The position numbers are program-made. This document shows positions 46,901 through 49,900 of a DNA stretch of 64,000 nt, in pieces; position 1 is the first letter of the stretch, and each line of letters opens with the position of its first letter. Source of the DNA: a plasmid; NCBI RefSeq assembly GCF_057098645.1, contig NZ_JBXSPU010000002.1. One strand, given 5' to 3'.

Positions 46901-49900
46901 CATTTCAAAGATGTGCTTATAAAAGCGCATCGTGTTTTGATTGTTGAAGTTTAACTGTACAGGTTCAAATCTGAACGGTGAAAACTCAGTTGATGAGAAG
47001 AACGGATCGCTTTCATCGATATGGATGGTGGCAATGTGGCGCTCCAGATTGTTCTTCATTAGATTATTTTCTTCGTGCAATTCATTGAACCAGTCTTGAA
47101 TTGCCTGCACTAGTTCGGGGTGCTTAACTGCATTGACCGTTCTGAATAAGGATGAAATGGCAATACTGACATCATCAAACCCTCTTATTACGGAACGATT
47201 ACGTGCCGTGAGAAATCGGTTAAAGTCTGGCGTGCCTGGGGTAATAGTTACTGTAGCCATGCCGTAATGTTCATTTTTACTTTGCACGACCCTACGGCTA
47301 TTATCGGACGCATGAGGGGAGCGGGTATTTACGTCAGGTACCTTATGCTCGCTTTCATTCATTGTTACATCGGTCATTGTGCCACCTCTGATTTTGAGTA
47401 TTGACGGACTTTTCGTCCCAGTTCGATATATGCAGCATGGTAGAACTCAAGTAATTCTCTGTAGGGTTCCAGTAATCCCTCCGTTTTTTCAATCATTTCA
47501 TATTCCCAGCTGGCATGATTAACAAAGCAGCTTTTCGTATATTTTCCACTTTTCATCGGTGAAATCCGTTTCGACATGTGACTAGGTGGCCTGTTTTTAT
47601 ACGGGCTAAACTGATGCCAGGTTATGGTGACTTTCCTGGCATTACCAATTAGCTCAACTTTTGGTGCATATGAACCCAGATACTCCTTCTTTAGAGTTTT
47701 GCTATCCCTGGGTAAATTCCTCTCAATGTGATTCCGTTCTTTCCACTCGATCCAATAATTGGTGATCAGTTCTTCAGCCTCTTCTCGAAGAACATCGATT
47801 TGTGAGCGCAATAAAGTACGTGAAATCTCCAATGACTTTAATAGCTTCGATTTAGACATGGGGCCTCCTGATGTGAAATCACTATACCGAAGTGATTTTC
47901 AATTTTTTTTCACGAACGGGACTTTTTTCTGTGAATTTTTTCGAGAATTTTGCATGGCAAATTTAAGAATGGAGGAAGCACTGAGAGTGAGTGACATCAG
48001 ATGTAAACGGGAACGGCCAAAAGGTCCGCATTTTATCGTGGAAGAAAAGTAACTTTTCCAGCAATGCTTATTGCTGAGATCGTGATCTGAAAAGAACTGT
48101 TTTACCTACTAAGTTATACATCTATCTAGTGCCACTTTTTAAAGGAAAGTGACCCTATGATTTTGACGCATAGTGCCACTTTTAAAAAAAGTGACCCTAT
48201 GTCGTGATTACATAGGGTCACTTTTCATCAAGAAGTGACCCTATGTCGATGGTGCATAGGGTCACTTTTCAGCAAAAAGTGACCCTATGTAGTAGTCATG
48301 TTAAACAATCGAAAAAATAATCATGCTTACGCGCATTTTTCCCTAAGGTTATTGCTACTTAATGCCGATAACGACTCAGGCTTTGAGGTTTTTTTATACG
48401 GTTCACATTTCGTTAGCAAGGTCAGGGTTTTTTGATAAAATTCTGGTTAGTTTGGTTAAAAAGTGTTACAAGTAAGGGTAATGGCTGAAAGGTTAGTTTT
48501 AAGGTTCAAAGCGGCAGTATTAAAATTCCAAAAGTTACTTTTCATCCTTCAGAATCCAGACCTTAATTTCATGTAGAAGATTCGTACAATTGTATTGGCG
48601 CAAGGACAATCCGCACATGTCAGAATCAGATAACATCACGCGTAATTTACTCGGTAAACTATTACGTACCGAGATTTCGATTATTCGTAGTTACCGTGCC
48701 TTCTTAATGTTATTGCCTCTTCATGGATCTTCTAAGTATCAAACTGGATCACCACTCCTCCAACGCCGACTATTTGGTAATGGATTTGGAGCTATGATTG
48801 ATAATGCATTTGAAGTTGAAACTCGGCCAGGAAGCTTCCTCGTTCCTCGTTCTTTAAGTAAAGAGATCTCTTGGGACAAATTCTTTGTAGCTGTAGTTGA
48901 TGGCGACACTAACGTCATTCGAGAATATGACAGTGAAGATACTGACTTCGGCATTTACAATGAAGGTGAAAAAGTAACTTTGCTCAGCGGGCAGGAGGAA
49001 TTTTATAATCCGAGAAAGATCCAGCAACTACGTTCTAAGTGTGTAGACATTCAAAATGATTACTTAATGCAAGTTTTCTTTATGTCAATGCTTGCACCTG
49101 AGTTTGTTAGTATCTTTTTTGGATTAAAACCTGCCACCGTTGAAGCAATAAAAGATGTCGGGATGTCATCACTTAAATTAATTAATGACATCGTTCTCTT
49201 TCCACGAACAATTCCCTTTACGCCAGGTCTGGGGGATGATAGTGCCACGCTAAAATCAAAGGTTTTTGCTTGGGCATACGAAATATCTGCCGATATTCGT
49301 TTGGGTAAAGTTAGTGACGATTTAATGGAATTACTGCGTTACGACACTATGTTTACATGCCACCGTCAGGATGTGTTCAATACTTTGGCAAATAAAGTGC
49401 TCTTGAAGGATTATTGAATATGGCTAAAGTCGATCAAACTAAAGCTAACATGTTATTGAGCGCTACAAAAACGATGTCTCTTGGTGCCAATAAAAACTCC
49501 ATAAGGATACTCTATGGAAATCATGTTGCCGAAAATATAGACTTCAGGTCTGAACCTCAACAAAACTTTAAAAAAGGGATTCGTGGGTGGAGTCGCCGCA
49601 CGGATAACCGCAGGGCTTTTTCTGCGGTTATTGATGTCGCTGTAAACTATTTCGGTTTTGATCCTATTCACCCGGAATCCAGTTTTCGAAATATTGACTT
49701 CAACCGCATCATGAGTGTGCTGCATAACCTTGGATATTTCGTCTGCGCTCCTGAGGTAAATAAAATCATTGAGATTCTAACGTCAATGAAAGAAATCGAG
49801 GAGCTTGAAACTTGTGCGAAATGTAAGCGCCCTTATATTGTCCCGTATACCAATGATACTCATTGTCCTCGATGCAGATTGTCGTCCACGTCATCGGCAA

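Follow-up and report, generated by a model that had tools for sequence, protein, structure and literature searches.

A phased palindrome array between traH and trhR of an R27-like IncHI1 plasmid as a candidate relaxosome-assembly platform

The 64,000-nucleotide stretch of plasmid DNA analysed here (contig NZ_JBXSPU010000002.1 of assembly GCF_057098645.1, called the window throughout) carries four tandem palindromes at 48126-48289, in the gap between the divergent transfer genes traH and trhR of an R27-like IncHI1 plasmid. We propose that this array is a platform for relaxosome assembly, that is for protein docking, within or beside the IncHI origin of transfer (oriT), and we give this reading a probability of about 0.5. 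The abstract of Lawley and colleagues from 2002 is said to describe the cloning of the traH-trhR intergenic region of R27 and its mobilisation by R27, which would make it the R27 oriT. Placing oriT here therefore rediscovers a known locus, and the array is most likely not a new kind of element; as a discovery this is modest, since the R27 oriT region was assigned to this locus two decades ago. A reading made from the sequence alone had called the array a candidate oriT, and what stands of that proposal is the locus, which is the R27 oriT locus of the literature, while the array as oriT core or holder of the nick is unproven. The array itself appears undescribed in the literature searched, and a full-text search for its arm and palindrome sequences returned no relevant paper.

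Anatomy, uniqueness and conservation of the array

Repeat finding, motif counts and conservation between IncHI1 and IncHI2 delimit the array, to which no strand is assigned, and confirm that it is real. Its four units are 33-35 bp long (about 34) and are separated by 9-bp spacers, each unit consisting of an inverted pair of the half-site AAAAGTGACCCTATG around an A/T-rich centre of 3-9 nt. With Tandem Repeats Finder the array is called at 48127-48290 (period 44, 3.8 copies, 81% matches, score 161), together with a sub-array at 48186-48290 (88% matches, score 166). The right arms, of the AAAAAGTGACCCTATG type, are present in four copies spaced 42, 44 and 44 bp, which bears out the sequence-only description of four units of about 44 bp; the unit centres, derived from the repeat positions, are 42.5, 43 and 44 bp apart, or about four helical turns. 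That description also gave every unit an inverted pair, which is perfect in units 3 and 4 but imperfect in units 1 and 2, where the left arms are degenerate (CTAGTGCCAC, CATAGTGCCAC), that of unit 1 more so than that of unit 2. Counting from traH, unit 1 (CTAGTGCCACTTTTT-AAAGG-AAAGTGACCCTATG) occupies 48126-48159, and its left arm, degenerate as it is, is invariant in four lineages. Unit 2 (CATAGTGCCACTTTT-AAA-AAAAGTGACCCTATG) follows at 48169-48201, with arms (48169-48183 and 48187-48201) that are 87% complementary. The arms of unit 3 (CATAGGGTCACTT-TTCATCAAG-AAGTGACCCTATG, 48211-48245) are perfectly complementary, a perfect inverted pair of 14 nt being found at 48210-48223 and 48233-48246 with 9 nt between its arms. 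In unit 4 (CATAGGGTCACTTTT-CAGCA-AAAAGTGACCCTATG, 48255-48289), perfect 15-nt arms at 48255-48269 and 48275-48289 enclose a 5-nt loop; R27 has C, not T, at 48262.

Folded as single-stranded DNA, the segment 48110-48310 reaches -42.5 kcal/mol, compared with -15.9 +/- 3.0 in shuffles (z = -8.8), and units 3 and 4 form stems of 13-16 bp. An Rfam scan found no known RNA family, its only matches being sub-threshold, miRNA-like hairpins.

The motif is confined to this one place. The 13-mer AAGTGACCCTATG, allowing up to two mismatches, has seven matches in the window, every one within the array, whereas shuffled windows hold a mean of 1.21 and none of 100 reaches seven. Allowing one mismatch, the half-site GTGACCCTATG is confined to the array in the 180 kb of R27, and in 50 kb of an IncHI2 plasmid it occurs in the array and in a single stray copy with one mismatch, which lies within the relaxase gene at a distance of about 2.4 kb. 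A site found once per plasmid fits an origin-specific factor, and this uniqueness argues both against an operator of the tra regulon and against iterons.

Conservation was examined in an alignment of four lineages: IncHI1, the pLEC-1cb1 type (85%), an IS1-flanked relic in Escherichia coli plasmids (82%) and IncHI2 (76%). Between IncHI1 and IncHI2, identity is 93% in the arms, compared with 42% in the loops, 41% in the spacers and 60% in the rest of the gap. Across the alignment, 107 of 118 arm columns are invariant as opposed to 13 of 46 in loops and spacers (Fisher P = 5e-15). The left arms of units 1 and 2 keep their degenerate forms across the lineages, and the alignment holds no compensatory changes in the arms between IncHI1 and IncHI2. 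Since mismatched arms are conserved and compensatory change is absent, the pattern points to base-specific contacts with a protein, rather than to a hairpin kept merely for its pairing. Strong conservation extends beyond the array on the traH side, where the block 48110-48142 is among the most invariant of the gap. Within it lie the conserved flank TAAGTTATACATCTAT (48110-48125) and, inside that flank, the box TTATACAT at 48114-48121 (ATGTATAA on the minus strand), a candidate nick region.

Klebsiella IncHI1B/FIB plasmids provide a distant analogue. Their MobI shares 29-31% identity in alignment (33.6-38.2% over the tblastn match), and the DNA is otherwise unalignable. Their gene order next to the gap, mobI-hypothetical-MOBH, is that of IncHI1, and at the equivalent position they carry three tandem palindromes of the form CATTAGTACTTTT-N5-7-AAAGTTACTAATG. 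In the R27-type and the Klebsiella IncHI1B lineages alike, the arm nearest mobI is degenerate, with ATGTATAA coming after it.

A proposed relaxosome platform and its alternatives

The array lies 267 bp upstream of the traH start codon, in non-coding DNA next to a gene of the MobI family. TraH is a full-length match to the Pfam MobI family PF19456 (E = 1e-21); its pairwise similarity to the IncC MobI is marginal (20% identity, E = 0.045), and an NCBIfam release 20 scan of TraH, R0121, TrhR and TrhY gave no match at E <= 0.01. The RefSeq label for 47374-47859 is 'conjugative transfer protein MobI(A/C)', in which '(A/C)' is misleading for IncHI proteins; the family assignment comes solely from PF19456. 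TraH of R27 has been described as the MobI-like factor of MOBH11 systems, and MobI self-associates, binds the C-terminal domain of the relaxase and sets oriT selectivity in IncC, where it is essential, and in pAQU1, MobI being needed by MOBH1 but not by MOBH2 systems (bioRxiv 10.1101/2025.04.21.649884). In R27 the MobI-like gene directly adjoins oriT (PMC10838148). The region of the array is A+T-rich with several inverted and direct repeats, as expected of the MobI-associated oriTs of MOBH1 conjugative elements (IncHI, IncA/C, SXT/R391, IncT), and IncC has a comparable repeat content.

It is plausible that the four palindromes, being about four helical turns apart, all present themselves on one face of the duplex. 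In this model, dimers of a locus-specific relaxosome protein, most likely TraH, would bind the four sites as duplex DNA, forming a nucleoprotein complex that would in turn recruit TraI, the MOBH relaxase. The relaxase would then nick one strand nearby, our best guess from the conservation being the TTATACAT/ATGTATAA box at the array edge nearest traH. As the divergent traH and trhR promoters flank the array, this complex may tune them as well. Accessory proteins of R388 and F feed back on promoters, and the relaxosome accessory proteins of other plasmids, such as TrwA, TraY and TraK, often autoregulate. In this model the array would contribute to transfer. A more specific version of this model is somewhat less probable and is offered tentatively: the palindromes would be the recognition element of a MobI-family factor, and so the first defined MobI site in any MOBH1 system, with the arms (CATAGGGTCAC in IncHI1 and IncHI2; CATTAGTAC in Klebsiella IncHI1B) acting as a specificity code that determines which plasmid a given relaxosome can act on, and the nick lying in the ATGTATAA box. 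The literature searched yielded no MobI binding site or MOBH1 nick site, and searches for descriptions of IncHI oriTs returned only oriTfinder outputs.

Several points weigh against the platform model. The predicted structure of TraH (pLDDT 86), a helical hairpin with a small beta-sheet, has no recognisable DNA-binding fold, and DNA binding by any MobI protein is undocumented in the literature searched. Moreover, the oriTfinder match reported for the IncHI2 plasmid pGS32-1 is 252 bp long and by synteny corresponds to about 48380-48630, the trhR-proximal ~250 bp of the gap, beside the array. A full-gap oriT reference would give a match of about 510 bp starting at 48111; since the match is 252 bp instead, the curated oriT entry may exclude the array. 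In that case the oriT core would not include the array, whose role would be that of an enhancer or operator.

It is also conceivable, though unlikely, that the units act as single-stranded hairpins recognised by the relaxase TraI itself, in the manner of the gonococcal genetic island (GGI), one of them being the initiation/termination hairpin and the others redundant or spare. The minimal oriT of the GGI is a hairpin of about 32 nt that is nicked 3 nt away on the 5' side, and its TraI needs this hairpin next to the nick, requiring its structure and not its sequence (PMC6736028). The 13-16-bp stems of units 3 and 4 are of the right size for such a substrate, the array folds far more stably than shuffled DNA, and the Klebsiella lineage keeps its palindromy despite a different sequence. 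However, the arms are nearly invariant in sequence and lack compensatory changes between IncHI1 and IncHI2, and the conserved mismatches in units 1 and 2 weaken the very hairpins that would be recognised. Furthermore, the 9-nt spacers, where the nick would be expected, are just 41% conserved, four phased copies are unexpected for a nick hairpin, and the dependence on MobI separates MOBH1 from MOBH2 systems (bioRxiv 10.1101/2025.04.21.649884). The array thus agrees with the GGI type in the size of units 3 and 4, but not in the pattern of kept pairing and free sequence.

Less likely again is a purely transcriptional role, in which the array would hold operator or activator sites through which a local regulator controls the divergent promoters of traH (H operon) and trhR (R operon). 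Operators typically consist of phased palindromes, autoregulation is common among the relaxosome accessory proteins of other plasmids, and the array does sit between divergent promoters, with a conserved candidate trhR promoter about 125 bp downstream. Conversely, a promoter scan places the array over neither core promoter, and the F, AC, Z and AN promoter regions of R27 hold no copy of the motif (up to one mismatch), nor does the rest of that plasmid. The known regulators also fit poorly: according to PMC7366339, TrhR/TrhY act as activators of the F, H, AC and Z operons and the R operon lies outside the control of HtdA, and as the array motif is unique to the gap, neither TrhR/TrhY nor HtdA fits as its binder. 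Outside the array, the 180 kb of R27 hold no copy at the co-regulated promoters where an operator of the TrhR/TrhY-HtdA regulon would be found. The sequence-only reading had offered a set of repressor operators as its alternative; a general tra operator is disfavoured, since none of the other tra promoters carries the motif, and the idea may hold for a purely local autoregulator. Far less probable is a curved element with phased A/T tracts that nucleates H-NS/Hha and helps to silence trhRY in a temperature-sensitive manner. Each unit does contain T4-5 and A4-7 tracts recurring every 42-44 bp, and H-NS is reported to repress trhRY at 37 C (PMC7366339). Such an element would not, however, require the invariant G+C-containing arms (GGGTCAC/GTGACCC), which persist while the A/T-rich loops vary, and the Klebsiella array retains palindromy and not just A-tracts. 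Replication iterons or a partition centromere are the least credible explanation, with the tandem layout as their sole support. The rep genes of R27, at 39.5, 54.4 and 156.8 kb, are 48-69 kb from the array; parAB and parMR, at 18-25 kb, are likewise distant. The motif does not recur near rep or par genes, and the flanking genes are all transfer genes. The iteron alternative raised from the sequence is thereby refuted.

The platform model has consequences for how IncHI plasmids are recognised and followed. These plasmids carry multidrug resistance in typhoid Salmonella and have spread mcr-1, mcr-9 and tet(X4), and the array provides a sharply defined, strongly constrained candidate target through which a MOBH relaxosome could recognise oriT. 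It also provides a sequence signature for IncHI-type oriT-mobI cassettes on plasmids typed as non-mobilizable. Plasmid A of E. coli D5 (NZ_CP010146, 37.8-40.7 kb), an IncY plasmid typed 'non-mobilizable', carries an IS1-flanked cassette of about 2.9 kb with the R0121-like gene, traH/mobI and the complete gap with its four palindromes, running about 800 bp beyond the trhR start codon. Near-identical cassettes, some with a truncated relaxase gene, are present on dozens of plasmids of 75-190 kb from E. coli, Shigella and Salmonella. Should the array and TraH together define oriT recognition, plasmids with these cassettes could be mobilised by a co-resident IncHI plasmid; likewise, if the palindromes are indeed the MobI recognition element, small oriT-traH cassettes on 'non-mobilizable' plasmids would be open to mobilisation by IncHI helpers.

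The intergenic gap and its surroundings

The segment 47600-48900 is 100% identical to that of more than 200 IncHI1 plasmids, the best-matching ones being of the tet(X4) type, of swine and human origin in China. An alignment with the R27 oriT region, which the sequence-only reading had suggested as a check, shows a single mismatch in 761 bp against the prototype R27, whose intergenic region is at 108150-108906 of NC_002305, and the same flanking genes. The R27 backbone corresponds to 25.8-64 kb of the window. Apart from short fragments, 1-25.6 kb has no match in R27, and this first ~25.6 kb is therefore accessory DNA inserted in the IncHI1 backbone, as judged by comparison with R27.

Between the annotated start codons of traH (47859) and trhR (48617) the gap measures 757 bp; the 730 bp given earlier apply only if the longest open reading frame, from a TTG at 48590, is taken. 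Leftward, the order is traH (R27 R0122; 47374-47859, minus strand), encoding the MobI-family mobilisation factor (Pfam PF19456, RefSeq name mobI), an R0121-like gene (46655-47377, minus strand) for a 240-aa protein with no assigned function that always lies between mobI and the relaxase gene, traI (43609-46644, minus strand), annotated by RefSeq as 'MobH family relaxase' in identical DNA, and then genes for a coupling protein (a traD-type T4CP, or type IV coupling protein), a hypothetical protein and a DUF4400 (TraJ-like) protein. The MOBH relaxase, the traD-type T4CP and the DUF4400 protein are thus all encoded, according to RefSeq and GenBank annotation of identical DNA. Rightward, trhR (48617-49417, plus strand), the first gene of the divergent R operon (PMC7366339), is followed directly by trhY (49420-49932) and then by trhF, trhH and trhG. 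The sequence-only reading was right to place the relaxase side leftward, but the rightward operon does not begin with pilus assembly: trhR and trhY are now regarded as regulators (PMC7366339), and the pilus genes trhF, trhH and trhG come after them.

A candidate trhR promoter, TTAGCA-17-TAAAAT with an upstream TG, was found by promoter scan at 48413-48441 on the plus strand, inside an invariant block. Its -35 hexamer stands about 125 bp downstream of the end of the array, so that the two do not overlap, and a Klebsiella counterpart, TGATATAAT, was read by eye at a similar distance from the array. The same scan gave no convincing traH promoter. Just upstream of the traH ribosome-binding site, at 47875-47899, lies an inverted repeat, GAAATCACT-N7-AGTGATTTT, which is nearly invariant in the four lineages (block 47863-47892); judging from its position, the repeat could be an operator or a hairpin of the 5' untranslated region controlling traH. 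Downstream of the candidate trhR promoter there is a further invariant block at 48428-48478 (TTTTGATAAAATTCTGGTTAGTTTGGTTAAAAAGTGTTACAAGTAAG), and a perfect 10-bp palindrome, TACAATTGTA, stands at 48585-48594, about 25 bp upstream of the trhR start codon. Together these two elements would imply either that trhR has a conserved 5' leader as long as about 170 nt or that this stretch holds more elements with a regulatory or oriT role. This part of the gap is where the IncHI2 oriTfinder match maps.

Two candidates for the nick were set aside. A match that begins at the left edge of the array seemed to offer a natural junction as a nick marker, but it is an ISKpn26 insertion abutting CTAG. In pF1053-2 (NZ_OY757951; positions 1940-2932 of the locus), a plasmid typed 'mobilizable' only, this IS5-family element at the left-edge CTAG separates the array from traH, presumably through the target preference of the IS5 family and not because of a nick. 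An IncP-like nick motif, CATCCTTC, at 48543-48550, which resembles YATCCTGY, was rejected because it is not conserved in pLEC-1cb1 or IncHI2 and because MOBH relaxases are HD-domain enzymes unrelated to MOBP.

The gap is also bracketed by two 13-bp palindromes, neither with an assigned strand: AAAAGTAACTTTT at 48045-48057, on the traH side and outside the array, and AAAAGTTACTTTT at 48530-48542, 75 bp upstream of the trhR start codon. Both are members of a family spread over the plasmid, AAAAGTWACTTTT, in many cases lengthened to GAAAAGTWACTTTTC, which is more surprising than the array. Sites of this family lie in the window at 28271, 32355, 32473, 41579, 43309, 48045, 48530, 48970, 51608, 57145, 57227 and 61762. 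It is by far the most frequent palindrome there, with 15 copies of its 11-mer core against at most two for any other, and it is absent from accessory DNA (1-25.8 kb of the window, and the Tn10 region). R27 holds 25 exact copies and 42 with up to one mismatch, where dinucleotide shuffles give 0.02 and 0.38, and the density is similar in an IncHI2 plasmid (12 sites in 50 kb) and a Klebsiella IncHI1B plasmid (14 in 50 kb). From the annotation tables, about half of the sites are intergenic, some between convergent genes, and their flanks are unconserved. Additional matches seen per database record are copies of this dispersed 13-15-bp palindrome and not further arrays. A full-text search with the AAAAGTWACTTTT sequence returned no relevant paper. 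IncP plasmids carry dispersed KorB operators, and by analogy AAAAGTWACTTTT looks like a KorB-operator-like or parS-like site for a putative plasmid-wide DNA-binding protein.

Comparison with known transfer origins

The classical accessory arrays at oriT include the TrwA sites sbaA/sbaB in R388 and, in F, the TraM sites sbmA-C and the TraY sites. In these arrays an oligomeric accessory protein occupies several phased sites, which lie from tens to hundreds of bp away from the nick, as the IncHI array would in the platform model. Minimal nicking does not depend on them but efficient transfer does, and they also serve as operators. The accessory proteins of R388 and F are, however, of the ribbon-helix-helix or TraM type. 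The structure predicted for TraH/MobI combines a helical hairpin with a small beta-sheet and shows no known DNA-binding fold.

Among MobI systems, one comparator is the predicted oriT-HI1B of Klebsiella PTU-HI1B plasmids (Ares-Arroyo et al., bioRxiv 10.1101/2024.01.30.577996), which is likewise intergenic, lies upstream of mobI-hypothetical-MOBH and contains the three-palindrome array. Its arms are CATTAGTAC as opposed to CATAGGGTCAC in IncHI1 and IncHI2, and its three units are irregularly spaced (45 and 56 bp), in contrast to the four of IncHI1. In a test by its authors this predicted origin was not mobilised by RP4 (bioRxiv 10.1101/2024.01.30.577996), a result that says little about its cognate system. 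Short motifs repeated upstream of mobI, in one or both orientations, are also present in a Shewanella plasmid and in the IncC plasmid pVCR94, with differing sequences and layouts. The octamer AGATAGAT (minus strand; ATCTATCT at 48120-48127) adjoins the mobI-proximal repeat in R27-type plasmids, and it also occurs within the repeated ATTCCAGATAGATAG unit of the pVCR94 oriT region (positions 729-736 and 822-829 of the stretch compared), in the same orientation relative to mobI. This sharing may be due to chance, as the octamer is of low complexity and is absent from the Klebsiella lineage.

The IncC oriT, a repeat-rich region of about 150 bp upstream of mobI (Hegyi et al. 2017, PMC5587640), resembles the IncHI locus in adjoining a MobI-family gene of a MOBH1 system, in being A+T-rich and in holding a short motif in direct and inverted copies. 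It differs in abutting mobI and overlapping the mobI promoters, in having repeats of 9-14 bp and in its relaxase gene lying about 50 kb away; the IncHI array, by contrast, has four long palindromes with a regular 42-44-bp phasing, 267 bp from traH, and its relaxase is encoded in the traH operon. The minimal oriT of the GGI, with its MOBH2 TraI, is the sole biochemically defined MOBH substrate (PMC6736028), and its inverted repeat is about as long as one unit of the array. This oriT has one hairpin, of which the relaxase recognises the structure and not the sequence, and it needs no MobI factor, whereas the IncHI array consists of four copies constrained in sequence. With the R27 oriT region, finally, the comparison is one of identity, the DNA and the flanking traH and trhR genes being the same; what is newly added here is the anatomy of the palindromes, their uniqueness and their comparative conservation.

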